Notes: a model not told the origin generated them from the letters alone. 64,000 nt of DNA from Pedobacter sp. (GCF_965279535.1 NZ_OZ257244.1:4874713-4938712); one strand, 5' to 3'; positions 28,771 to 46,412 are shown, counted from the first letter of the stretch. Made by a program: numbers and translations.

Positions 28771-31700
28771 CTAATCTGGGTTAGAACCTTCGTTTAGATT
28801 TTCTTTTGTGCTTTTTACATAATCTGTAGGTGATAAACCAAATTGTTTTTTAAACTCTTTGGTGAAATATTTTGGATCGCTAAAACCCACAGCATATGCT
28901 GTTTCTGAAACATTGTATACCTGCTGATTGAGGAGTTGAGCAGCTTTTTTTAACCTTACCGACTTGATGAAATCATTTACTGATAAATCTGTTAGTGCCC
29001 TGATTTTTTTATAAAGAATTGGCTGGCTCATGCCCATCTCACCCGATAACATGGGAACATTGAAGTTAGGATTAGCCAGTTGCCCTTCTATATAATTCAT
29101 GATTTTAGTTAAGAAAGCCTGATCAGGCGCTGCTATGGTAACATTTGTTGGTTCCAGGGTAACAATTTGTCCAAACTTTTGCCTGATTAGGTTTCGGGTA
29201 GCAATGAGATTCTTAATATTTGCCGCCAATAATTCGAGGCTAAAAGGCTTAGTCATATATAGGTCAGCTCCTGTTTTTAGGCCAGCTAACTGATGTGCAT
29301 GCGATGCCTTCGCTGTCAAAAGTATAACTGGGATATGACTGGTCCGGTCATCCAGCTTCACTTTCTCACAAAGTTCCAGTCCGTCAATCCCAGGCATCAT
29401 AATGTCACTGATAATTAAATCAGGAATTTGAGTGGTGGCCATTTCCAGCCCCTGAATACCATCAGCACATTCCAGTATATGGTATCTACTGAAAAGCTCG
29501 TCTCTTAGTAATTTCCTAATTTCAGGATTGTCTTCTATCAGTAGAATAGTGCTTTCTATATGTTCATTTTTGTCCGGGTTTTGCTGTAGTACCTTTTCTG
29601 AATGAGGCTGAACAAATCCTGATTCAAGCTTCTCATAAGGATCAGGTTCAACAATAGTTTTTCTGTCAAAATGAGCATTTCCCTTCTTTAGTTTTACTGA
29701 AAACGTAGTGTTGCCCTCCTTATTTGCTGCAACCGGTTGACTATTCACCTGAATTGTGCCCGAATGTAATTCTACGATAAGCTTACTTAAGGCTAAACCT
29801 ATCCCAGTTCCGGTTTGCCCCTTAGTACTATCGATCTGATAAAATGAACTAAAAAGCCTGTCCTGTTTCTCTAAAGGAATTCCCCTGCCATTATCTGTCA
29901 CCTTTATTATCACATAATCTGCAAATTCTTCAATAAATACGCTGATCTTACCGCCATTGACAGAGAACTTGAAGGCATTTGAAAGGAGGTTAAACAAAAC
30001 TTTTTCCATTTGAAAGCGGTCAAAGTAAAGTTGTATGTCTTCCGTTTGGCAGTTAAAGGTATAGTCAATTTGATTTTGCGTAGCCAATTCCTGAAAAACA
30101 TGAAATATTTGCTTTGAATAGGCTACAATATTGTTTTTACTGATATGAAGATCCATGTGTCCCGACTCTGCTTTTCTAAAATCGAGGAGTTCGGTAGTTA
30201 AGCGCATCAGGCGATCTGCATTATCCTTTATCGAGTGGAGTTGAGTACTCAAGCCGCTATCAGATGAAGCATTGTCGATCATTTTTTCCAATGGGGCCGT
30301 AATCAAAGTAAGGGGAGTCCTGATTTCATGAGAAATATTGGTGAAAAAGTCGAGTTTTAAATTATGAACCTCCTGCTCTTTTTTAAAAAGTTCCCGCATT
30401 AAAGCATATCGGAGTACGATAAAAATTATGGATCCAAAGAATACAAGATAAAACAAATAGGCGTACCAGGTTCTCCAAAGGGGGGGAAGAATTTCTATTT
30501 GAAGTTTGGATATATTTTTACTCCAAATGCCATCATTGTTACGCCCTTTAACCAATAATACATACTTACCTTCATGAAGATTAGTATAGGTTACTGAGGG
30601 GATATGCACAAAATTCCAGTCTTTCTCAAAACCACTTAACTTATAAGCATAGCTGTTATTGCCCGGCTTGATGTAGTTGAGTGTAGCAAACTCAACACTG
30701 AAAATATTCTGGTCATGGCGGAGCGTAATCTTTTGTTCTCCATTACTATCCTTTTTTATGTGGTATGGAGAGTTTGCCTCAATTGTTTTATTGAAAAGCT
30801 TAATGTCTGTGAAAATAACAGCAGGTGCGTAGTGATTTTGATGAAACTGAGCAGGAAAGAAGGATACCAGCCCACTAAAACCACCGAAAAACATTTTACC
30901 TGCTTTGTTCTTGTAATATGAGTTTTCATTGAACACATTTCCGGGAAGACCATCGTTGGAATTGTAATTTTTAAAGGTTTTCTTTTTTGTATCAAATCTT
31001 GATATACCTTTATCCGTACTTAGCCATAGAATTCCCGGCTTTTCTGTTAAAATTCCTAAAATATTATCATTAGGTAAACCATCCTTTATTCTCCAGTTCT
31101 CCAGTTTTTTAGTTTCAGGATTAAAACAGGTTATCCCACCGTAATAAAACCCAATCCATATATTTCCAGCTTCATCTTCAGTAATACAATTAGGGCTATT
31201 GCTGAAATTAAGCCGGGTAAATGCATCACTCTTGTATTTTAGAAAATAAAGACCACCAACTGCCCCAACCCAGATGTTCTTTTGGCGATCTTCATGAATG
31301 CAACGAATAATAGATTTACGTATCGCTGAATTATTCCCCTTTGAAGCATCGGGCTGACTGAATTTTAGGCTTTTTTTATCTAATAGGTTTAGGCCTCTTG
31401 TTGTTCCCACCCAAAAGCGTCTCTGGCTGTCATGCAGCATACAATAAACATTGTTAGAGCTAATGGTGCCTTTAACACCCTGCTTATTTTTATAATGGAT
31501 AAAATCTTGATTGCCTTGGTTAAATTTCTCCAGTCCGCCCAGAAATGTACCTATCCACAGCTCCCTATCTTGGTCTATATAAATTGTTTTTACCAAATTG
31601 GAGCTTAAGCTATTTGGATTTGCAGGATTATTTTTAAAGGTTCGAAAGGTTTTCGATTGTTGATGATATAAATTTAAACCTTCGGCTTCAGTTCCGATCC

Positions 31701-32832
31701 ACAGGTTTTGCTCAGCATCTTCACAAATACCGCTGATGATGTTACTGCTTAAGCTGTTCTTAAAATTGCTGCTTTTAAATACCTCAAAAGCGCTTAGGTT
31801 TGGAAATACCACATTTGCCCCACCATAATAGGTGCCAATCCATATAGAACCATGGTTATCGGCAAATATTTCATAAACAGAATTCTGACTGATACTTTTT
31901 ATATTGTCCGGATCATGTTGGTATACCATAACCTTTCCATTCAATGGATTTAAAATATTGATACCTTTCTGTGTACCAATCCACAGCAGACCATTTTTGT
32001 CCAGTAAGAGTTTGCGTACGCTATTACTGGATAAGGTTTTGTTGGCGGTAGAATAGAATTGCGTGGCTCCGGTGATCAGGTTTAATTTAATTAATCCCGC
32101 CTTGCTCGTTCCGATCCAAAGTATGTTGTGCTGATCTGTAATTAGCGTATTGATACTGTTCTCGACAATGCTGCTAATTTTCTTATTGAATGTTCGTTGA
32201 AGGTTAATTTTATAAACATTGCCGCTTTTGCTTAAGCGCATCAAACCTTTATTTGTGCCAACCCAAATAATACCTTTACCCGCGCATGCCAAAGCGGTAA
32301 TTTTGACATCTTTCAGGAATGATTTAAAAAGAGTTCTTTTTTTGTTTATCAAAAGATTTAAACCAGAATCTGTTCCAACCCATATCTTTTTGTCTTTATC
32401 TTCTAATACCGCATTAATAACATTATTAGAGAGGCTAAACCTGGCAGAAGAATGTTCAATCCGTTCAAAATTCTCACTTTCTGGATGATATTTATTCAAC
32501 CCTCCTGATGTTCCAACCCACAATGTTTTCTCCTGATCAGAGAAAAGAACCCTGATGTAATCACTGGAACTTAAAGTAGTGCTATCCTGATCCGAATGCT
32601 TAAATATCTTGATTTTGTTGGTGTCGTATTTATTTAATCCAAACCGTGTGCCTAACCAGATATATCCCTGCGCATCTTGAGTAATGGCCAATACCGAATT
32701 TTGAGAAAGCCCATTTTCTACGGTTAGGTGATGAAAGGAAATATTATCCTGACTCTGAGCTGTTGAGCAAAAGGATAGTATAAGTAATATAATAAACAGA
32801 TTCTTCAACCCATAGGGAAGTAATATTTTCAT
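28771..32832 (-). CDS. Hybrid two-component system (beta-propeller sensor, Y_Y_Y, HisKA, HATPase, REC, AraC HTH)
   Basis: Repeated LWIGT propeller blades, FFTNISHEIRTPLTLI, GTGIGLAL, PDLIISDIMMP and AYAVGFSDPKYF. ATG 32832 (MKILL) is preferred. Confidence 0.95.
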   Translation of the reverse strand: MKILLPYGLKNLFIILLILSFCSTAQSQDNISFHHLTVENGLSQNSVLAITQDAQGYIWLGTRFGLNKYDTNKIKIFKHSDQDSTTLSSSDYIRVLFSDQEKTLWVGTSGGLNKYHPESENFERIEHSSARFSLSNNVINAVLEDKDKKIWVGTDSGLNLLINKKRTLFKSFLKDVKITALACAGKGIIWVGTNKGLMRLSKSGNVYKINLQRTFNKKISSIVENSINTLITDQHNILWIGTSKAGLIKLNLITGATQFYSTANKTLSSNSVRKLLLDKNGLLWIGTQKGINILNPLNGKVMVYQHDPDNIKSISQNSVYEIFADNHGSIWIGTYYGGANVVFPNLSAFEVFKSSNFKNSLSSNIISGICEDAEQNLWIGTEAEGLNLYHQQSKTFRTFKNNPANPNSLSSNLVKTIYIDQDRELWIGTFLGGLEKFNQGNQDFIHYKNKQGVKGTISSNNVYCMLHDSQRRFWVGTTRGLNLLDKKSLKFSQPDASKGNNSAIRKSIIRCIHEDRQKNIWVGAVGGLYFLKYKSDAFTRLNFSNSPNCITEDEAGNIWIGFYYGGITCFNPETKKLENWRIKDGLPNDNILGILTEKPGILWLSTDKGISRFDTKKKTFKNYNSNDGLPGNVFNENSYYKNKAGKMFFGGFSGLVSFFPAQFHQNHYAPAVIFTDIKLFNKTIEANSPYHIKKDSNGEQKITLRHDQNIFSVEFATLNYIKPGNNSYAYKLSGFEKDWNFVHIPSVTYTNLHEGKYVLLVKGRNNDGIWSKNISKLQIEILPPLWRTWYAYLFYLVFFGSIIFIVLRYALMRELFKKEQEVHNLKLDFFTNISHEIRTPLTLITAPLEKMIDNASSDSGLSTQLHSIKDNADRLMRLTTELLDFRKAESGHMDLHISKNNIVAYSKQIFHVFQELATQNQIDYTFNCQTEDIQLYFDRFQMEKVLFNLLSNAFKFSVNGGKISVFIEEFADYVIIKVTDNGRGIPLEKQDRLFSSFYQIDSTKGQTGTGIGLALSKLIVELHSGTIQVNSQPVAANKEGNTTFSVKLKKGNAHFDRKTIVEPDPYEKLESGFVQPHSEKVLQQNPDKNEHIESTILLIEDNPEIRKLLRDELFSRYHILECADGIQGLEMATTQIPDLIISDIMMPGIDGLELCEKVKLDDRTSHIPVILLTAKASHAHQLAGLKTGADLYMTKPFSLELLAANIKNLIATRNLIRQKFGQIVTLEPTNVTIAAPDQAFLTKIMNYIEGQLANPNFNVPMLSGEMGMSQPILYKKIRALTDLSVNDFIKSVRLKKAAQLLNQQVYNVSETAYAVGFSDPKYFTKEFKKQFGLSPTDYVKSTKENLNEGSNPD

Positions 32833-32983
32833 GCGATTTGGTTTCAGGATTTGAGCTTTACCCTGCCTGAATTTAAGACAGCGTATTTCCATTTTCCTAT
32901 ACTTAAATATAAATAAAAATAGCCTAAAAATTAGATGAGGCTAAACCTTTTAAGCTTGCAATGAAGATTGTTATGGATTTTCA

Positions 32984-37312: not shown

Positions 37313-37546
37313 ATGAAAAAAGTACATTCTATTGATGGTAATTTTGCCATCAGGCAAGGCAAGTGGAAGCTTGAACTTTGCCCGGGGTCAGGAGGTTGGG
37401 CGGCTCCTAAAAATGCTGAAACTTTGAGAGCCGGCGATCCAGCCGTACAACTTTATGATTTATCATAGGATACAGCAGAAAAGGATAATTTACAAGCCAG
37501 ATATCATGAGGTAACCATGAGGTTGACTACTTTGTTACTGAAGTAG
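37313..37546 (+). pseudogene. C-terminal remnant of an arylsulfatase
   Basis: Reads VHSIDGNFAIRQGKWKLELCPGSGGW...VQLYDLS*DTAEKDNLQARYHEVTMRLTTLL in a single frame, with an internal TAG at 37466-37468 and no N-terminal catalytic domain. Confidence 0.75.
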
Positions 37547-37688
37547 GTAAATCAAATGATGCTTAGGTGAGCATCTGGAAGCATGAAATCAAAAATAACC
37601 GTAAACTCTTCAGTAATTTTAAATATTTAACATTTTTTTTTAACTCTATGAGTTAAAAAACAAAATTAACTCTGTTTTTTAATTAATT

Positions 37689-37730
37689 CTACTATTCCTA
37701 TAGGAATTATAGTTTTAAGTTTTATCTTTG
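37689..37730 (+). promoter_or_regulatory. Promoter and palindromic operator of the sulfatase locus
   Basis: Consensus -7 element TATCTTTG (37723-37730). 24-bp imperfect palindrome CTACTATTCCTATAGGAATTATAG with perfect 14-bp core ATTCCTATAGGAAT, over the expected -33 region. Confidence 0.7.
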
Positions 37731-37754: not shown

Positions 37755-37844
37755 ATGAAGACACTTTACAAGCACATTTCATTTCATCTAACGGCTCTAA
37801 ACACACCATTCCACCTCGGTATGCGAATGTGTTGTTGTTGTTAA
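37755..37844 (+). CDS. Putative polycysteine leader peptide (29 aa, MKTLYKHISFHLTALNTPFHLGMRMCCCC)
   Basis: ATG 24 nt after the -7 element, A-rich upstream sequence, four consecutive TGT codons immediately before TAA, at the head of a SusC/SusD/arylsulfatase locus. Confidence 0.7.
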   Translation: MKTLYKHISFHLTALNTPFHLGMRMCCCC

Positions 37845-37947
37845 ATACCACAAATAATTTTCAATAAATTAATGATTTACCTGCTTTAAGTCACGAGAAG
37901 CTTATGCTCAGACTATGGACCAGGTGAAGGTAACCACAAGAACAGCC

Positions 37948-38187
37948 ATGTACCGAATTTCTATTTCCATCACCATTATCTTTATCATTTTTCTTACAGG
38001 CTTTTCTGTTTCTAAACGCAGGCAAGCGGCAAAGCAGAAAGGAAAATCTTTATTTCCGAAGGTAGAAGCATGTTGCTCTTCGGGATTACCAAATAGATTT
38101 GGTATCCCCAGATTATCTGATACCCCGTATCAGTCCGGGGCATTAACAGCAGGCCATCAGTCATCAAAGGTAAAAAAGGCAGAATAG
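37948..38187 (+). CDS. Small exported protein with a CC motif (79 aa; 90 aa from ATG 37915)
   Basis: Hydrophobic N-terminus MYRISISITIIFIIFLTGFS, basic linker, then EACCSSGLPNRFG. Lies between the leader ORF and susC. Confidence 0.5.
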   Translation: MYRISISITIIFIIFLTGFSVSKRRQAAKQKGKSLFPKVEACCSSGLPNRFGIPRLSDTPYQSGALTAGHQSSKVKKAE

Positions 38188-38279
38188 TAGGGCTTAGCGG
38201 TAAATACCTAAATAGATATTAAGTATCAATAATTATATGTCAAAAAGGAGGGAAATACAATAAACTATACATTAAAATA

Positions 38280-38301
38280 GGGGAAACAAGCATTGTTCCC
38301 C
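38280..38301 (+). other. GC-clamped hairpin about 80 nt upstream of susC
   Basis: GGGG-A-AACAA-GCA-TTGTT-CCCC with no U-tract. Confidence 0.45.
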
Positions 38302-38380
38302 CAGGAATTAAACTATCGAAACAGGCATTCAATTGGCGTTGGCACCTGAATCTATTAACAACTTAACTCAATACAAAAGT

Positions 38381-41300
38381 ATGCAAAATTCTGATGAACT
38401 CCGACAGCAGGGCTGGCCGGATTCGAACCCTTGTGGTCAAACAGCAAGGTCTGAAAAAAAACTGTTTTCTAAATTTTCACTATGCAAGGCCCAGGTTTGT
38501 GGCCTGATGCTCTTACAAATTTTAGCTTTTTGGTTTTATGAAGGAAAAGCCCAAACTACACCCCTAATTAATTCAACCTTAAGCGGTCAGGTACTGGATT
38601 CAAAAACAAAAGAGCCTATTCCAGGTGTGGTTGTTCGGATTAATGGTACCACACACTCGGCGGCTACGGATAATGACGGGAGATTTAAGTTTGTAACCGG
38701 GCAAAAGTTTCCCTATACCTTAACCATCAGTTATATTGGTTACAAAACCCTTGAAGTTGTGGCAAATGGAAGTCCTATTCAGGTAACTTTAGAAGAACTG
38801 GCCAATCAGCTCGAAAATGTAGTGGTAATTGGCTATGGTACTCAGAAAAGAAGCGACATTACAGGTTCTGTTTCTTCTGTTTCTAAAACGGCCTTAAAAC
38901 AGCCTTTAAGTTCAGTGGATCAACTTTTAAAGGGAGCCGCCGCAGGGGTCCAGGTAACCCAAACATCTGGTCAGCCAGGTGGTGGAGTAAGCATTCGGAT
39001 TAGAGGTGGCAGCTCAGTTCAGGGTGGTAACGAGCCCCTGTATGTGGTTGATGGTTTCCCGATTTACAACAGTTCGGCATCTGCAGGAACTTTAAGCGGA
39101 ACACCACTAAACCCCTTAGCCAGTATTAACCCCTCCGATATTGAAACCGTAGATATCTTAAAGGATGCCTCAGCTACTGCAATATATGGCTCAAGAGGAG
39201 CCAATGGAGTGGTAATTATCACTACCAAAAAAGGTAAAGCAGATAGAAGTTCGGTAAGTTATGAAGGAAGTTATGGTAGCCAGGCGGTAGTTAAAAAGAT
39301 TGATGTTTTGAATGCCCGCGACTTTGCCTTGTTGAGAAACGATGTTTTTTATGATACCGACCCAGGCAAAGGCCGCTTTCAATACCTGAGTCAGGCTCAA
39401 ATAGATCAATTGGGTGCCGGAACTGATTGGCAGGGCGAAGCTTTTGTAAAAGCACCAACCCAAAACCACCAGTTAACCATTAGCGGAGGTAACCAAAAAA
39501 CACGATATCTGATTTCGGGAAACTATTTCGACCAGGAAGGAATTGTGAGAAACACAGATTATTCCCGAATTAGTGTTAGGGCCAATGTAGATGCACAACC
39601 TTTTGAAAAGTTAAAAATTAGTGCCAATATTACGGGTAGCAAGGCCGATGCAAACGTATCACCATCAGGGATAATTTCTGGTTTGTTGATTATGCCCGCT
39701 GTAGCAACTGTTTACGATGCATCAGGGGCATATACCCTTCGAAATCCGTTTGAGAATATTTTTTCTAATCCTATCGCTTCCCTCAACGAGCAAATCAATA
39801 AATCTACAACCAATAAATTTCTAGGAACCGCTTTCGGAGAATATACAATTATAGATGGATTAAACTTAAAAGTCCTTTTGGGTGCAGATGTGAATAATGT
39901 GAATGAGAAAAATTTCATTCCTTCAAGCATTTATGAAGGGGCATCAATAGGAGGTTCAGCAGGCAGAGGTACGTATAATTCTTACTCCTGGTTAAATGAA
40001 AATACACTTTCTTACTCTAAAATCCTGGGAAAACATACCATTGATGCCTTAATCGGTTTTACACAGCAAGAGTTTAAAAGTGAAACTGTTCGATCAAATG
40101 CCCAGAAATTTGTAACTGACGATTTAACCTACAATAGTTTACAAAGTGGCGCCACATTGGTAGCACCTTATTCAGATGCAGCGTCATGGGTCCTTCATTC
40201 TTATCTGGCCAGGGTTAACTACAGTTATAACAATTTATATTTTTTAACGGGCAGCATCAGGGCCGATGGCTCTTCCAGGTTTGGTAAGGGCAATAAGTGG
40301 GGGTATTTCCCCTCTGCAGCAGCTTCCTGGAAGTTAAGCAATGAGGATTTTTTTGAACCCCTGAAAGCGGTGGTATCTGAACTGAAAGTGAGGGGAAGTT
40401 TTGGGACAACAGGAAATTTGGAAATTGGCCAATATCAATCTTTGGCAACCCTTTATAGCTTGAATTACGTTTTCGGAGGAGCAACTTCTACCGGATTTGC
40501 GCCAAATAGAATCGCAAATGATAATTTAGGTTGGGAAACCACTCATCAGTATGATGCAGGAATCGATGTTGGATTTTTGAATAACAGAATTCAACTGACA
40601 CTAGATGCCTACTACAAAAAAACGGAAGATCTTTTATTGAATGTCGAAATTCCATGGACCACTGGTTATGCTTCTTCACTTCAAAATTATGGTTCGGTAT
40701 CTAATAAAGGGCTTGAAATTGGTTTAAATACTAAAAATTTAACAGGTGAACTGGTTTGGAATACCAATCTCAATCTTTCTATTAACAGAAATAAGGTGCT
40801 GGCCATTGGAAACGGGGCTCAATCCTACATCAGCGGAAATTACATAGTACAGGTAGGTCAACCCCTGGGCAGCTTTTATGGAAATTTAACTAACGGAATT
40901 TTGCAAACCGGTGAAGAGGCTACAAAGGGGAAGTTTACCGGAAGCGCGGTGCCTAAGGCCGGAGACCGCTTATATCAGGATGTTAATGGCGATGGAACTT
41001 TTACCGTTGCTGCGGATAAAGCAATCATTGGAAATGCACAACCCGATTTTATATTCGGTTTAACCAATAGTTGGGAGTGGAAGGGATTTGATTTAACTGT
41101 TTTTATACAGGGCGCTTATGGCAACCAGATTTTAAACTCGAACAGGCAAACCCTGGAGCTGTTTACAGGACAACAAAATGCTTCTACTACAGCACTGGAC
41201 CGTTGGACAACCACCAATCCGAGCCAAACTATTCCCAGGGCTAAACTGGATCCGGCACCGGTATTTTCCGATCGGTTCATTGAAGATGGCTCTTTCTTAA

Positions 41301-41527
41301 GGCTGAAGGATATCTCATTTGGTTATACTTTGCCCAGAAGAATTAGTACTAAAGCCAAATTATCCAATGTCTATTTCTATATAGCTGGTCAAAACCTGCT
41401 TACCTGGACAGATTATTCAGGCTTCGATCCTGAGATTACTTCAGGTAGCAATGTTTCTCCGGGAACTGATTCAGGAATTTACCCAATAGCTAAATCAATT
41501 AGGGCAGGCTTACGATTAACTTTTTAA
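38381..41527 (+). CDS. SusC/RagA TonB-dependent receptor of the sulfatase locus
   Basis: [41 protein letters not shown], terminal GLRLTF. ATG 38381 is preferred over TTG 38333. Confidence 0.95.
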   Translation: MQNSDELRQQGWPDSNPCGQTARSEKKLFSKFSLCKAQVCGLMLLQILAFWFYEGKAQTTPLINSTLSGQVLDSKTKEPIPGVVVRINGTTHSAATDNDGRFKFVTGQKFPYTLTISYIGYKTLEVVANGSPIQVTLEELANQLENVVVIGYGTQKRSDITGSVSSVSKTALKQPLSSVDQLLKGAAAGVQVTQTSGQPGGGVSIRIRGGSSVQGGNEPLYVVDGFPIYNSSASAGTLSGTPLNPLASINPSDIETVDILKDASATAIYGSRGANGVVIITTKKGKADRSSVSYEGSYGSQAVVKKIDVLNARDFALLRNDVFYDTDPGKGRFQYLSQAQIDQLGAGTDWQGEAFVKAPTQNHQLTISGGNQKTRYLISGNYFDQEGIVRNTDYSRISVRANVDAQPFEKLKISANITGSKADANVSPSGIISGLLIMPAVATVYDASGAYTLRNPFENIFSNPIASLNEQINKSTTNKFLGTAFGEYTIIDGLNLKVLLGADVNNVNEKNFIPSSIYEGASIGGSAGRGTYNSYSWLNENTLSYSKILGKHTIDALIGFTQQEFKSETVRSNAQKFVTDDLTYNSLQSGATLVAPYSDAASWVLHSYLARVNYSYNNLYFLTGSIRADGSSRFGKGNKWGYFPSAAASWKLSNEDFFEPLKAVVSELKVRGSFGTTGNLEIGQYQSLATLYSLNYVFGGATSTGFAPNRIANDNLGWETTHQYDAGIDVGFLNNRIQLTLDAYYKKTEDLLLNVEIPWTTGYASSLQNYGSVSNKGLEIGLNTKNLTGELVWNTNLNLSINRNKVLAIGNGAQSYISGNYIVQVGQPLGSFYGNLTNGILQTGEEATKGKFTGSAVPKAGDRLYQDVNGDGTFTVAADKAIIGNAQPDFIFGLTNSWEWKGFDLTVFIQGAYGNQILNSNRQTLELFTGQQNASTTALDRWTTTNPSQTIPRAKLDPAPVFSDRFIEDGSFLRLKDISFGYTLPRRISTKAKLSNVYFYIAGQNLLTWTDYSGFDPEITSGSNVSPGTDSGIYPIAKSIRAGLRLTF

Positions 41528-41556
41528 TTGTGCAGTGCTCATTAAAATATAATCCA

Positions 41557-43032
41557 ATGAACAATAGAAAAATATTATGGGCTTTAATCCTTGTTTTTAG
41601 CATCTCAAGCTGCTCAAAACTGGAAGAAGATCCCGATTCGGTTTTAGTTACCGAACAGTTTTATCAGAATGAAAATCAAGCTGTCTCGGCTGTAACAGCA
41701 AATTACAGAAAGCTGTATGAAAGTGGTCAGTCTCTGTATAACAGTCTTTTCCAGATTGGTGTAGAAATGGCAACAGATGATTATGAAGCTGGTCCCAGGG
41801 CAAGAAACGCACATGTAAGAGCCATTTCAGGGCTTACCCACGACTCCTCAAACGATAGAATGGAGCAATTGTGGAAGCAAAGTTATGATGGTATTAATGC
41901 TTCAAATATTGCCATTGATAAGATTGCTCAAATTGACGCCGGCAAAATAAGTGCAACAATCAGAACCCGCTTAATCAATGAATCTAAATTTTTAAGGGCA
42001 CTGCATTATTTCAATCTCGTGCGCTGGTTTGGCGATATTCCCATCGTACTCCACGAAACGACTTCATTAACACCTGAAAATCTGTATGTTGCCAATGCTG
42101 CCGAATCTGCTGTGTACGCGCAAATTATTCAAGATCTAAAAGATGCAGAAGGACTTCCCTCTGCGGCAGAATACGGAAGTAAAGATATAGGCCGGGCAAC
42201 CTCCGGAGCTGCAAAAAGCTTATTGGCTAAAGTATACCTGACGCAGAAAGATTGGGCTAATGCGGCTAAAAAAAGTAAGGAAGTGATTGATAGCAAGGCT
42301 TATGGCTTGTTTAGTAATTTTGCAGACGTATTTAATGTGGCTACCAAAAATGGTAAGGAACACATTTTTTCTGCCCAGTTTGTTGGCAATGCAGGCTATC
42401 AGGGCAACAGTTTAGCCAGCCGATCTGCAGCTGCAGATGTGCCGGGGATTAATGGCGATTATGCCGATGCACTACATACCGCAGGGGGACTTTATGAAAC
42501 GTTTAGCAACAATGATACCCGTAAAACCGTTACTTTTGTAACACAATTAGTAAGTCCGACTAACGGGCAGCTTTATACTTTCTCTCCTCAGTTTTTTAAA
42601 TATTACGATCCTGCTGTGGTAGGTAATCAGGGCCAATCATCTAAAAACTTACCCATTATCCGTTATGCAGAAGTACTTTTAATATATGCCGAAGCTTTAA
42701 ATGAACAAAATACAGGTCCCAATAGTGATGCCTATACTGCGATTAATGAAGTAAGGCTCAGGGCTGGGATTGGTAAGCTGGAGGATGTTTCTCCGGGCCT
42801 GAACCTGAATACTTTTCGTGATGCAGTTTTTTTAGAGCGGAGAAGGGAATTTGTTTACGAGTACCAGCGTTGGTTTGATCTGGCCAGAAGAGGCGCAGAT
42901 TATTATATCGCTACATTAAAAGCTGCAGGCAAAACACTGGCTGCAAAAAGACATATTCACTTTCCAATTCCGCAAAGAGAACTAAATCTGAATCCAAAAT
43001 TGAAACAAAACCCTGATTGGGTGGGCTTCTAA
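41557..43032 (+). CDS. RagB/SusD family lipoprotein
   Basis: Lipobox SISSC, KFLRALHYFNLVRWFG, IRYAEVLLIYAEA and ERRREFVYEYQRWFDL. Start ATG 41557. Confidence 0.95.
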   Translation: MNNRKILWALILVFSISSCSKLEEDPDSVLVTEQFYQNENQAVSAVTANYRKLYESGQSLYNSLFQIGVEMATDDYEAGPRARNAHVRAISGLTHDSSNDRMEQLWKQSYDGINASNIAIDKIAQIDAGKISATIRTRLINESKFLRALHYFNLVRWFGDIPIVLHETTSLTPENLYVANAAESAVYAQIIQDLKDAEGLPSAAEYGSKDIGRATSGAAKSLLAKVYLTQKDWANAAKKSKEVIDSKAYGLFSNFADVFNVATKNGKEHIFSAQFVGNAGYQGNSLASRSAAADVPGINGDYADALHTAGGLYETFSNNDTRKTVTFVTQLVSPTNGQLYTFSPQFFKYYDPAVVGNQGQSSKNLPIIRYAEVLLIYAEALNEQNTGPNSDAYTAINEVRLRAGIGKLEDVSPGLNLNTFRDAVFLERRREFVYEYQRWFDLARRGADYYIATLKAAGKTLAAKRHIHFPIPQRELNLNPKLKQNPDWVGF

Positions 43033-43043
43033 TTTCTAAAAAT

Positions 43044-44693
43044 ATGAATCAAAAAATAAAGTTTCCTGTAAAAGCTGTTGGGATGGCTTTTACAATAATC
43101 ATGCTCCTTGGAACCAATGCCTGGGCACAAAAGAAAGCGAAACCAAATATTGTTTTGGTTTTGGTTGATGATCTGGGTTTTTCAGATATCGGTCCTTACG
43201 GTGCTGCAGATATTGCGACACCAAATTTAGATCGCTTAGCGGCTGAAGGTATCCGGTTTAAAGAGTTTTATAATAATTCTATTTGTGCACCAACACGGGC
43301 ATCGTTGCTCACAGGACAATATCAACATAAAGCCGGAGTAGGTTTCTTTAACAACAACTTGGGATTACCTGCTTATCAGGGTTTTTTAAATAAAGAATCA
43401 CTCACTTTAGCAGAGGTGTTGAAAACAGCAGGATACACTACCCTTATGTCTGGTAAATGGCATGTGGGTGATGATGAAAATCAATGGCCAAACCAGAGGG
43501 GTTTTGATCATTTCTTCGGTTTCATAGGTGGGGCAAGTAATTACTACGAGATTGGGAACCAGGGTAAACCAACAGTACCTTTAGTAAAAGATAATAAGCC
43601 ATTTTATCTGGAACCAGGGAAATACCTTACGGAAGAAATCACCAATAATGCACTTGGGTTTTTAGACGATCAGCAGAAAACGAATAAGCCATTTTTTTTA
43701 TACCTGGCTTACAATGCCCCGCACTGGCCATTACAGGCATTGCCGGCAGATTTGGCTAAGTACAAAGGAAAGTATAAAAAGGGATGGGATTCTCTTCGGA
43801 TAGAGCGATACCAGAACGCTATAAAAAAAGGTGTAATTGATGCCGGGCAAAAAATTGCTGTTCAGGATGCTCAGGTGAAGCCCTGGAATAAGCTTACTTA
43901 TGATGAGCAACAATATTGGCAAACCCGTCAGGAAGTATATGCTTCGATGATTGACCATGTTGATCAGGGAATAGGTCGTTTATTAGCCAAACTAAAAGCA
44001 CTTAAACAAGACGACAATACGATCATTATTTTTATCTCGGATAATGGTGCGCAAGGTGGAAATGGAACGCGTTTATATACTTCGCGTAATACTGGTTTGG
44101 TAGGTACTGCCGGTTCATATGAAACACAAAACAGCAACTGGTCGCAAACAGGAAATTCTCCTCACCGGGATTACAAGGGGGCGCCTTACGAGGGCGGAAT
44201 CAGTGCTCCGTTCATTGCCTGGTATCCACAAAAAATTAAAGCCAGTAGCATAAGCCAGGGTACTGCACACCTGATTGACCTTGCTCCAACCTTCTATGAA
44301 CTGGCAGGAGCAAAATATCCCTCAGTTTTAAACGGGGTAAGCAGTAATGCACTTCCAGGAAAAAGTTTACTTCCTGTGCTAACAGGTAAAGCGGGTAGAG
44401 TAGAACGGGGAGAACCCCTTTTTTGGGAGCGTGGTGGAAATAAAGCTGTTAGAGATGGAGACTGGAAGTTGGTTTCATCAGCAGCTAAGGGAGAGAAATA
44501 CGAATTGTTCAATATCGCCGAAGATAGGGCTGAAAATTTGGATGTTGCCGCCCAGCACCCCGATATTGTTGCCCGGTTGAAAGCAGCATATGCGCAGTGG
44601 GCAGAGAAAAATGGTGTAGTCGATTACAACAAGTTAAAGTCTGTCCCTGTTCGTCAGCAAGGTGCTCCAAACAGGGGAAATCAAAATTTTTAA
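43044..44693 (+). CDS. Arylsulfatase (Cys-type S1, AtsA-like), secreted
   Basis: KPNIVLVLVDDLGFSD, active-site motif CAPTRASLLTG, SGKWHVG, YNAPHWPL and SDNG. Start ATG 43044. Confidence 0.93.
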   Translation: MNQKIKFPVKAVGMAFTIIMLLGTNAWAQKKAKPNIVLVLVDDLGFSDIGPYGAADIATPNLDRLAAEGIRFKEFYNNSICAPTRASLLTGQYQHKAGVGFFNNNLGLPAYQGFLNKESLTLAEVLKTAGYTTLMSGKWHVGDDENQWPNQRGFDHFFGFIGGASNYYEIGNQGKPTVPLVKDNKPFYLEPGKYLTEEITNNALGFLDDQQKTNKPFFLYLAYNAPHWPLQALPADLAKYKGKYKKGWDSLRIERYQNAIKKGVIDAGQKIAVQDAQVKPWNKLTYDEQQYWQTRQEVYASMIDHVDQGIGRLLAKLKALKQDDNTIIIFISDNGAQGGNGTRLYTSRNTGLVGTAGSYETQNSNWSQTGNSPHRDYKGAPYEGGISAPFIAWYPQKIKASSISQGTAHLIDLAPTFYELAGAKYPSVLNGVSSNALPGKSLLPVLTGKAGRVERGEPLFWERGGNKAVRDGDWKLVSSAAKGEKYELFNIAEDRAENLDVAAQHPDIVARLKAAYAQWAEKNGVVDYNKLKSVPVRQQGAPNRGNQNF

Positions 44694-44705
44694 AGCGATA
44701 AAACG

Positions 44706-46352
44706 ATGAAAAGAAAAATATTAACATTCCTCTGTGCGGCCTTAACCTTGCAGAGCATGGCTCAAAAGGTAGCTAAACCCAATATCATTCTGATTTTGGC
44801 TGACGATTTAGGCTACTCAGATTTAGGGGCTTATGGTTCAGAGATTCATACGCCTAATCTTGATCGTTTGGCCAATGAAGGCTTACGATTGCAAGAATTT
44901 TATAACAATTCTATTTGCGCACCAACCCGGGCTTCTTTATTAACAGGGCAATATCAGCACAAAGCTGGAGTAGGTTATTTCGCTAATGATTTGGGCTTAC
45001 CTGCCTATCAGGGATATCTGAATAAAGAATCTTTAACCTTAGCCGAAGTGTTAAAAAGTGGTGGTTATCACACGCTGATGTCAGGAAAGTGGCATGTGTC
45101 TGGTAAAGATCAAAGTTATCCTTGGCAAAGGGGATTTGAGCAGGTAATGATGTCGGAGAACGGAAGTTATTTCGATCAGGGCGATTTTAACGGAGGCAGA
45201 AAAAGACCCTATACCTTAAACGGCAAACCATACGATTTAGCGGCAGGTAAATTTTACCAAACTGATGTAATTACCGAAAATGCAATAAACTTTCTGGATA
45301 AAAAGGAGAGTGCCAATAAACCTTTCTTCCTTTATCTGGCTTATACGGCACCCCATTGGCCTTTGCATGCGCTCCCAGAGGATATTGCGAAGTACAAAGG
45401 CAGATATGATAAAGGTTGGGATGTTTTAAGAGCAGAACGTTTGGAGCGTCAGAAGAAGTTAGGGATAATCGATAATCAGGCAAGTGTATCTGAAAAGGAT
45501 GCAGATATTTACGACTGGAGTAAGCTTTCATACGATCAACGTTCGCAATGGGCAAAAAAAATGGAAATCTTTGCTGCTATGGTAGATCGTTTAGACCAGG
45601 GGATTGGTAAAGTTTTGGAAAAACTTAAAGCTACGGGTGCAGATAAGAACACGCTCATTGTATTTATTTCTGATAATGGTGCGCCTGCAGAAGATCTGGT
45701 AACCTGGTATCATGGAGCAGTTAGAAATACTGGTGAGGTAGGTACCATAGGTTCTTATGAATCGCAAAGTAAAAACTGGTCTTATGCTTCCAATACGCCA
45801 TTTAAGGCCTTTAAAGATTACATGTATGAAGGTGGAATCAGCTCTCCTTTTATCGCCTGGTATCCTGCTAAAATTAAAGCCGGCAGCATTAAAAAAGGTA
45901 CAGGACACATCATTGATATAGCACCAACATTTTATGATTTGGCTGGCGTAGTTTATCCAAAGAAATTGAATGATGTAACCGCCAACCCACTGGCAGGGAA
46001 AAGCTTGTTGCCTGTGCTTTTTGCTGATCAAAAGGCCGTAGATCGTCAGCAACCTTTATTTTGGGAAAGGGCCGGCAACAGGGCGGTACGCCAGGGGAAA
46101 TGGAAACTGGTGTCTACCTGGCCAAGCTATAACTGGGAACTGTATGATCTAGAAAATGATCGTGCTGAGACTAAAAATGTAGCCCGCCAAAATCACGATG
46201 TGGTGAGCAAACTATCTGTGGCTTATTTTGATTGGGCAAAGAAAACGGGGGTGGTTGATTTTGCTACTCTGGAAGCCAAAGAACCTGCTTCAATGAAAGA
46301 ATTCAGAAAAAGTAAAGTGCAGGAACAAGCAGTTGAAAGTTACGGCTTTTAA
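44706..46352 (+). CDS. Arylsulfatase (Cys-type S1, AtsA-like), tandem paralogue
   Basis: KPNIILILADDLGYSD, CAPTRASLLTG, SGKWHVS, YTAPHWPL and SDNG. Confidence 0.93.
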   Translation: MKRKILTFLCAALTLQSMAQKVAKPNIILILADDLGYSDLGAYGSEIHTPNLDRLANEGLRLQEFYNNSICAPTRASLLTGQYQHKAGVGYFANDLGLPAYQGYLNKESLTLAEVLKSGGYHTLMSGKWHVSGKDQSYPWQRGFEQVMMSENGSYFDQGDFNGGRKRPYTLNGKPYDLAAGKFYQTDVITENAINFLDKKESANKPFFLYLAYTAPHWPLHALPEDIAKYKGRYDKGWDVLRAERLERQKKLGIIDNQASVSEKDADIYDWSKLSYDQRSQWAKKMEIFAAMVDRLDQGIGKVLEKLKATGADKNTLIVFISDNGAPAEDLVTWYHGAVRNTGEVGTIGSYESQSKNWSYASNTPFKAFKDYMYEGGISSPFIAWYPAKIKAGSIKKGTGHIIDIAPTFYDLAGVVYPKKLNDVTANPLAGKSLLPVLFADQKAVDRQQPLFWERAGNRAVRQGKWKLVSTWPSYNWELYDLENDRAETKNVARQNHDVVSKLSVAYFDWAKKTGVVDFATLEAKEPASMKEFRKSKVQEQAVESYGF

Positions 46353-46356
46353 AATG

Positions 46357-46390
46357 CCGGCAGGAGAGGCTTTACTGCGTCGCCTGCCGG
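46357..46390. terminator. Stem-loop between convergent genes, probable terminator
   Basis: CCGGCAGG...CCTGCCGG 8-bp perfect stem. The U-tract is weak. Confidence 0.5.
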
Positions 46391-46412
46391 TTATTATACC
46401 TTCATTTTGCTT

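Follow-up and report, generated by a model that had tools for sequence, protein, structure and literature searches.

A 64,000-nucleotide stretch of one Pedobacter sp. genome (GCF_965279535.1 NZ_OZ257244.1:4874713-4938712; hereafter the window, with positions counted from its first letter) contains a short open reading frame (sORF) that ends in a run of cysteine codons and lies upstream of genes for a SusC-type transporter, a SusD-family lipoprotein and two secreted sulfatases. A sequence-only reading of the window had taken this frame for a cysteine-responsive leader of a sulfur-scavenging locus. The promoter, leader and operon are arranged as follows.

37723-37730, plus strand: Bacteroidota-type -7 promoter box TATCTTTG (consensus TAnnTTTG), 24 nt 5′ of the sORF ATG
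37755-37844, plus strand: leader sORF of 29 codons, MKTLYKHISFHLTALNTPFHLGMRMCCCC, with its ATG at 37755 and its TAA at 37842-37844
37821-37841, plus strand: proposed sensor tract ATG CGA ATG TGT TGT TGT TGT (Met-Arg-Met-Cys4), then the stop; MRMCCC is kept despite synonymous exchanges (TGT/TGC, CGA/CGG)
37915-38187, plus strand: 90-codon remnant of a formylglycine-generating enzyme (FGE/SUMF1) gene (BLASTP against a relative's 385-aa FGE, E=6e-09, residues 13-67)
38381-41527, plus strand: SusC-type TonB-dependent transporter (Pfam; TIGR04056, 920 bits), in a frame open from 38333 with ATG 38381 as the likely start
41530-43032, plus strand: SusD-family lipoprotein (Pfam)
43017-44693, plus strand: secreted Cys-type sulfatase 1 (PF00884, E=3.6e-67), with a CAPTR motif and a signal peptide
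44706-46352, plus strand: secreted Cys-type sulfatase 2 (PF00884, E=3e-62), with a CAPTR motif and a signal peptide

The sequence-only reading had described a 29-codon ORF with four TGT codons (37830-37841) immediately before the stop, all sulfur residues other than Met1 within the final seven codons and a promoter element 24 nt upstream of the ATG, and each of these features is borne out. In Pedobacter relatives the TAnnTTTG box lies 17-31 nt from the sORF ATG, and its position predicts a 5′ untranslated region of about 18-30 nt. The body of the ORF was also said to be C-rich and G-poor; positions 37761-37820 contain 20 C versus 5 G, and the skew is conserved in relatives. No intrinsic terminator was found on the plus strand between the sORF and susC, as had been claimed, and Pfam confirmed the susC, susD and two sulfatase genes downstream. 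The earlier anatomy needs one correction, since the 90-codon ORF at 37915-38187 sits between the sORF and susC. The sORF peptides matched no family in Pfam or NCBIfam, and Rfam gave no match in the window leader, which thus has no riboswitch of its own.

With the window SusD as anchor (60-84% identity to its orthologues across Bacteroidota), the susC-susD-sulfatase module, with one or two sulfatases and with or without FGE, was found again in 80 loci, 75 of them usable, from Pedobacter, Mucilaginibacter, Sphingobacterium, Chitinophaga, Filimonas, Ohtaekwangia, Chryseolinea, Cyclobacteriaceae, Flavobacterium and Bacteroidales-type metagenome-assembled genomes; gene models at these loci were obtained by ORF scans and tblastn. 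A Cys-ended sORF was defined as an ATG-initiated frame of 4-80 codons, with at least three Cys in its last eight or nine codons, located no more than 600 nt 5′ of susC. Such a frame was present on the sense strand upstream of the orthologous susC (or FGE-susC) in 39/75 loci, distributed over four orders, whereas the antisense strand gave 0 and dinucleotide shuffles gave a mean of 0.55 loci (maximum 2). The same test with other residues returned 11 loci for Lys, 5 for Phe and 0-3 for the remainder. The check proposed with the sequence-only reading, a search for Cys-rich sORFs upstream of orthologues, is therefore positive, and a lone microsatellite is contradicted. A DNA similarity search with the whole leader in 40 relatives recovered only the susC-proximal block (window 38262-38398) and missed diverged sORFs, which were recognised by direct inspection of the relatives' loci.

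Congeners carry sORFs of equal length and position, for example MNKFYFLSFSTYAIHCSNHNRSMRMCCC(C/R/Y)A before the stop, and one Pedobacter has lost the upstream ATG and kept only MRMCCCCA. Between lineages the N-termini are unrelated, and the sORFs have no common sequence except at their ends, which read, up to the stop codon, ...MMYCCCK, ...MRMANMCCC, ...QYCCCC, ...VCMCCCC, ...FRCCC, MSTT..GARCCFVCCCRR, MKTK...ACCCC and ...CRMRMCC. Lengths range from 5 to 43 codons overall, the Flavobacterium sORF being reduced to MCMCC or MCCCC, and some Sphingobacterium leaders hold decayed versions with Met-Cys-Arg-stop around the stop. At least eight unrelated sORF types occur in four orders. All 87 collected sORFs have 3-6 Cys within the last eight codons; in 86/87 the final Cys stands 0-2 codons before the stop, at least one Met codon is among the last eight in 76/87, and the TGT:TGC ratio is 165:134. 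Since conservation is limited to the ends, TGT and TGC are exchanged and the Cys codons stand at the stop, selection on the peptide, the repeat or a nucleic-acid motif is argued against, and the pattern fits selection on the decoding of terminal Cys (and Met) codons in a translated frame.

The degenerate motif ATG-MGN-ATG-TGY-TGY-TGY (Met-Arg/Ser-Met-Cys-Cys-Cys) was detected in 33/401 family genomes versus 1 for the reversed control, and in 20 of the 55 Pedobacter genomes. The real hits fall into three contexts, namely FGE-susC, a 268-aa PhyH-family dioxygenase and O-acetylhomoserine sulfhydrylase (metY). Other hits were discarded as out-of-frame CGCAAG active-site motifs in bacilliredoxin-like genes or as a few in-gene chance matches in other genera.

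Within the whole 5.47-Mb genome, Cys-Cys-Cys in any frame gave about 1000 in-gene matches and was uninformative, and the count was limited to intergenic ATG-ORFs. Only 14 such ORFs (6-70 codons) contain at least three consecutive Cys, and in seven of the 14 the run is C-terminal and a co-directional gene follows downstream; all seven are sulfur-linked.

Leader 1: metY-metX-hom, with a SAM-I riboswitch (G000:C1:707997-708243)
Leader 2: PhyH-like dioxygenase, with an operator-like palindrome
Leader 3: second susC-susD-sulfatase locus, with an operator-like palindrome
Leader 4: window locus, with an operator-like palindrome
Leader 5: susC-susD, S51 peptidase, cytochrome c, sulfite-oxidase-type molybdoenzyme, FAD oxidoreductase and YeiH-family (PF03601) membrane protein, with an operator-like palindrome
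Leader 6: susC-susD pair, with a SAM-I riboswitch
Leader 7: redoxin/YceI/peroxidase/TonB locus, with a SAM-I riboswitch and an operator-like palindrome

The genome encodes at least 57 SusC paralogues, of which only four have a polyCys leader, and a relaxed search for Cys-ended sORFs 5′ of other sulfur-poor susC paralogues found none. The locus of leader 5 (G000:C1:1338000-1354200), which additionally encodes two proteins without known function, looks like an organosulfur uptake and sulfite-handling locus. The PhyH-family dioxygenase (268 aa, G000:C1:973943-974749) is preceded at 45-50 nt by an sORF of 26 codons ending in ...MRMCCCCA. The enzymes of Pedobacter and Flavobacterium share 85-88% identity, and orthologues in Flavobacterium, Xanthocytophaga and Olivibacter also have a polyCys sORF, for example ...NMRMCCCCCCSCC, ...GYRCCC and ...LLVCCCYC. 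This dioxygenase is always preceded by a polyCys sORF and a palindrome; MysH and EctD, the closest relatives with a solved structure, match only weakly.

The palindromes stand at or next to the promoters and follow the pattern TCTA(C)-N9-(G/A)TAGA. Besides the window leader, four other polyCys leaders of the genome have one (G000:C1:3716361, 1353859, 973790 and 5453420), and related palindromes are found at polyCys-leader promoters in Sphingobacterium, Flavobacterium, Olivibacter and Xanthocytophaga.

37688-37707, no strand assigned: operator-like palindrome TCTAC..TATAGGAAT, with a perfect core ATTCCTATAGGAAT at 37694-37707, just 5′ of the promoter box

The palindrome is probably the operator of a sulfur-regulon transcription factor, and its conservation at these promoters suggests that such a factor acts alongside the leader.

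That the locus is tied to sulfur status is supported by three independent lines, namely its riboswitch partners, the sulfur-linked operons and the strong depletion of Cys and Met in SusC/SusD. Of the four SAM-I (S-adenosylmethionine, SAM) riboswitches in the genome, three stand in one leader together with a polyCys sORF, whereas the metH riboswitch has no polyCys sORF. In the Pedobacter metY leader, the SAM-I aptamer (73.9 bits) is separated by a gap of 7 nt from the sORF ATG, and this sORF, of 41-43 codons and ending in ...ICCDMRAxTCMCCCIQ, is present in 27/29 loci with in-frame indels only; a covarying hairpin lies 3′ of it. Similarly, in Cytophagales-type copies of the susC-sulfatase locus, the polyCys sORF starts 8-9 nt 3′ of a SAM-I aptamer (62-77 bits).

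Sulfur sparing in proteins made under sulfur shortage is an established phenomenon. Over the 983 residues that align to the family model, the window SusC contains 0 Cys and 1 Met, which makes it the poorest in Cys+Met of the 57 paralogues. When 57 SusDs are ordered from the poorest upward, those encoded at the four polyCys loci take places 1, 2, 3 and 8 (rank-sum p about 7e-4), and the window SusD has 0.63% Cys+Met after its signal peptide. MetY, MetX and Hom likewise have 0.23-0.85% Cys+Met against a genome median of 2.66%. These sulfur-poor products argue for an operon meant for expression under sulfur scarcity.

The cysteine-leader interpretation put forward in the sequence-only reading is therefore supported by the orthologous sORFs, the SAM-I partners, the sulfur-linked operons and the Cys/Met-poor SusC and SusD. 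The sORF is most likely a regulatory leader and not a functional peptide gene, and we consider it probable, with fair confidence, that it represents a ribosome-sensed Cys/Met leader of a sulfur-limitation regulon that acts by stalling on its terminal Cys codons. It is one of at least seven such putative leaders in the genome and of a phylum-wide set, often paired with a palindromic operator or a SAM-I riboswitch. Transcription would start from the TATCTTTG promoter, and the sORF would be the first translated frame. When charged tRNA-Cys (perhaps tRNA-Met too) is scarce, the ribosome would stall on Met-Arg-Met-Cys-Cys-Cys-Cys before the stop, and transcription or expression would proceed into the operon, which began ancestrally with FGE, of which a remnant is left, and continues with susC, susD and the two secreted sulfatases; its products could take up sulfate esters and set their sulfate free. 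With ample cysteine, the ribosome would terminate and leave, and the bare C-rich, G-poor leader would be open to premature termination, most likely by Rho. Sequence comparison establishes the ORF with its conservation and codon pattern, its place in the set of sulfur-linked operons and the scarcity of sulfur in the products, whereas we infer that ribosomes stall at the Cys codons, that Cys-tRNA is what is sensed and in which direction the locus responds.

How stalling could be transmitted to the downstream genes was considered from the structure and composition of the leaders. No intrinsic terminator was consistent across 22 leaders from five lineages, RNAalifold on 17 aligned dioxygenase leaders found no conserved or alternative structure pairing the Cys region with the next start codon, and the folding stability of the window leader is unremarkable (z=-1.03). 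The spacer of the dioxygenase leaders (45-50 nt) is pyrimidine-rich, nearly G-free and unstructured. An ATGCG...CGCAT hairpin over the Cys codons was rejected, as it is not conserved and is lost in the window and several relatives. With no terminator and no start-masking helix, neither a classical terminator/antiterminator nor the masking duplex of mycobacteria is supported. In the 80 nt before the Cys run, the fraction of C is 0.22 and that of G is 0.13, and C outnumbers G in 42/43 leaders, whereas 980 ordinary upstream regions of the genome have C 0.165 and G 0.15-0.17, with C exceeding G in 42-55%. The lack of a conserved terminator or start-masking helix points to Rho blockage, a mechanism that the data fit but do not demonstrate. 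The simplest model follows tnaC, in that a ribosome stalled on the terminal Cys codons would mask or block the Rho entry tract. We put forward this Rho step tentatively, as a suggestion that stands somewhat below an even balance of belief; alternatively, the stalled ribosome might stabilise the mRNA or alter downstream initiation.

In the composite leaders, a further input could be added. The closeness of the SAM-I P1 helix to the sORF start (7-9 nt) suggests that initiation on the sensor sORF would be hindered once SAM is bound, which is plausible in Bacteroidota, where initiation does not depend on Shine-Dalgarno sequences and relies on unstructured start regions.

Other explanations of the conserved ends were considered. 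Among them, arrest by the nascent chain is unlikely, although it has the most in its favour: as in tnaC, ...MRMCCC in the exit tunnel would sense a free sulfur metabolite or redox state and not tRNA-Cys charging, the stall site adjoins the stop codon, and Met-Arg-Met before the Cys run is conserved in Pedobacter and recurs in Flavobacterium, Sphingobacterium and Olivibacter. Nevertheless, many lineages have a Cys run alone with no shared preceding motif (...QYCCCC, ...ACCCC, ...FRCCC, MCMCC), and a 5-codon peptide cannot fill the exit tunnel. A functional Cys-rich micropeptide, which might bind metal or Fe-S, donate copper to FGE or be a precursor or substrate modified by neighbouring O2-dependent enzymes, appears slightly less probable still. 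FGE oxidises Cys, the next gene encodes an oxidase in two contexts (FGE and the PhyH-like dioxygenase), and the MRMCCC motif is kept at the peptide level; on the other hand, equivalent ORFs stand before metY, bare susC/susD pairs and in SAM-riboswitch leaders with no oxidase near, the sORF shrinks to 5 or 8 codons with unrelated N-termini between lineages, and neither a signal peptide, protease or exporter alongside nor a Pfam or NCBIfam family was found. An identity as a ribosomally synthesised and post-translationally modified peptide or a metal peptide was rejected on the same evidence.

It is also very improbable that the (TGY)n tract serves as a nucleic-acid motif, such as a site for a DNA- or RNA-binding regulator or a small RNA, with the reading frame incidental. 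While ATGCGAATGTG is nearly invariant in nucleotides within Pedobacter and a weak hairpin spans the Cys codons of the dioxygenase leaders, the wobble positions vary freely with Cys retained, the tract always shares the frame of an upstream ATG, on the sense strand only and with a stop within 0-2 codons, and the indels of the metY leader are multiples of three. Least credible of all is a chance ORF around a functionless trinucleotide microsatellite. (TGT)4 is indeed a simple repeat, and the antisense strand of the window sORF reads Asn4 within a 61-codon ORF, yet the arrangement is conserved in four orders, the shuffle and antisense controls are near zero, and all seven polyCys leaders of the genome stand in sulfur-linked contexts.

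Several points weigh against stalling on the terminal Cys codons as the explanation of the leader. By the criterion used here, 36/75 orthologous loci are without a Cys-ended sORF, including Bacteroidales-type records and several Sphingobacterium and Chitinophaga loci, and since the genomes are related, the locus counts overstate independence. No structural link was found between the stall site and the downstream genes, and because the susC ATG of the window follows the sORF stop at a distance of 537 nt, with a decayed gene between them, any effect would have to be polar. Furthermore, the conserved Met-Arg-Met before the Cys run and the clade-conserved N-terminal stretches could mean a nascent-peptide effect, and a transcription factor at the palindrome may be the dominant switch.

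Two conserved hairpins occupy the 5′ region of susC in the window.

38280-38302, plus strand: HP1, a conserved G/C hairpin whose stem sequences differ between genera yet pair
38320-38349, plus strand: HP2, a conserved hairpin with stem AACAGG/CCTG and invariant loop CAATTGGCGTTGGC, about 50 nt 5′ of the susC ATG

HP2 was found in 40 copies in 29 orthologous loci, together with one in the leader of the second sulfatase-susCD locus of the genome (G000:C1:3716680-3716735). Its stems covary (AACAGG/CCTGTT, ACAAG/CTTGT and GTCGTT/AACGA), and in Sphingobacterium it occurs twice per leader, with one copy at the predicted transcript 5′ end. HP2 has no Rfam entry and may be a protein-binding or ligand-binding RNA element; a sigma-54 promoter and a tRNA-3′-end binding site were rejected for its loop, as spacing and sequence do not fit. 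In Flavobacterium, a second Met/Cys short ORF (MKIMHCPILS, MKKRMCCS or MEKMHNRCCK, each up to its stop) lies about 150 nt 3′ of MCMCC and ends a few bases 5′ of a conserved hairpin, CCATTTCTG-CGGCAA-CAGAAATGG, ahead of susC.

The 90-codon ORF downstream of the sORF records the history of the locus. It retains only the N-terminal signal/transmembrane segment and the CC..LPNRFG motif, which is also kept at the N-terminus of the full-length FGEs of relatives, and it aligns with the first ~62 FGE residues. Since related Pedobacter have a full FGE (PF03781, 270 bits) between the sORF and susC, the ancestral order is promoter, Cys leader, FGE, susC, susD and sulfatases. Decay of the FGE gene was independent in some relatives, and other Pedobacter have internal deletions of the same gene; in the present genome, a second, intact FGE without a polyCys leader is located elsewhere (G000:428729-429841). 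Earlier rearrangement is also indicated by a short fragment at 37337-37531, just 5′ of the leader, which is similar to the C-terminal end of sulfatase 2 (35% identity across 65 residues, E=4.5e-07) and is probably the relic of a pseudogene. At the other end of the operon, a G/C hairpin with a T-run stands at about 46356-46397, 3′ of sulfatase 2.

The operon consists of susC, susD and two sulfatases only and, having no glycoside hydrolases or lyases and no dedicated sensor regulator, does not qualify as a carbohydrate polysaccharide utilization locus (PUL). A gene for a hybrid two-component system (28771-32892, minus strand), the nearest of its kind, encodes Reg_prop, Y_Y_Y, HisKA, HATPase, receiver and AraC helix-turn-helix domains; it is 5 kb 5′ on the opposite strand with other genes between, and probably serves a neighbouring carbohydrate locus and not the sulfatase operon.

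Full-text searches of the literature found no description of Cys-codon leader ORFs in Bacteroidota or 5′ of SusC/SusD systems. The nearest counterpart known is in mycobacteria, where polycysteine leaderless sORFs (Ms5788A, the 'Cys ribulon') with Cys codons head sulfur/cysteine operons and sensing is proposed to depend on pausing of the ribosome (Canestrari et al. 2020, bioRxiv 10.1101/834739). As there, several independent loci per genome, seven here, share only the Cys tract. In contrast to the leaderless mycobacterial sORFs, the Pedobacter sORF has a predicted leader of 18-30 nt, its Cys tract abuts the stop, no duplex sequestering the ribosome-binding site was found, and the targets include SusC/SusD and secreted sulfatases, some with a SAM-I riboswitch. 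In Rhodobacterales, an upstream ORF of cysS (uORFC-8-2 motif) with tandem Cys codons, both TGC and TGT, was proposed as a sensor of tRNA-Cys charging (Brewer et al. 2021, PMC8632094). Both systems thus have a conserved upstream ORF with tandem Cys codons of either kind, but the Rhodobacterales element folds into two stems with an intrinsic terminator at the end and regulates cysteinyl-tRNA synthetase, whereas the Bacteroidota leaders have no conserved terminator and precede scavenging and Met-synthesis genes.

Escherichia coli tnaC senses free tryptophan through its nascent peptide and release-factor inhibition, with Rho-dependent termination. The Pedobacter leader resembles it in a stall site at the last leader codons, the lack of an intrinsic terminator and a C-rich Rho loading region that a stalled ribosome could mask, and differs in its probable signal, which is how much charged tRNA-Cys is available, and in that a role of Rho is inferred here. 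The Salmonella mgtA leader combines a Mg2+ riboswitch with the proline-codon sORF mgtL and Rho-dependent termination, and the SAM-I and polyCys composite leaders would likewise join a metabolite-sensing RNA with an amino-acid-sensing sORF; however, ligand and amino acid are different, and the window leader has no riboswitch. With the classical trp and his attenuators, the present leader shares the leader ORF, the codon run and the related target genes, but not the terminator and antiterminator hairpins. It is best described as a putative new form of Cys sensing by ribosomes, one that has new targets and is joined at some loci by a riboswitch.

One could go further and join these elements into a phylum-wide, ribosome-read sulfur regulon, in which stalled ribosomes would form roadblocks to Rho, or masks against it, within C-rich leaders, a SAM-I aptamer 7-9 nt before the sORF would gate translation of the sensor in some operons (metY in Pedobacter, susC-sulfatase in Cytophagales) and thus give two inputs, SAM and charged tRNA-Cys, and a class of SusC/SusD would serve sulfur nutrition, not glycan catabolism. 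As a whole, this reading is doubtful, though worth stating.

If the proposed role of the leader is true, the Cys-ended sORF would be a signature marking the sulfur-limitation regulon of soil and freshwater Bacteroidota, including the SusC/SusD/sulfatase module and the PhyH-like dioxygenase. The leader would also provide a tractable case of ribosome-mediated attenuation without Shine-Dalgarno pairing or an obvious terminator and, where a riboswitch is present, a natural composite leader of riboswitch and sensor ORF. Beyond that, some PUL-like SusC/SusD loci would serve sulfur nutrition and not carbon acquisition, which would bear on the sulfatase-rich loci in metagenomes.

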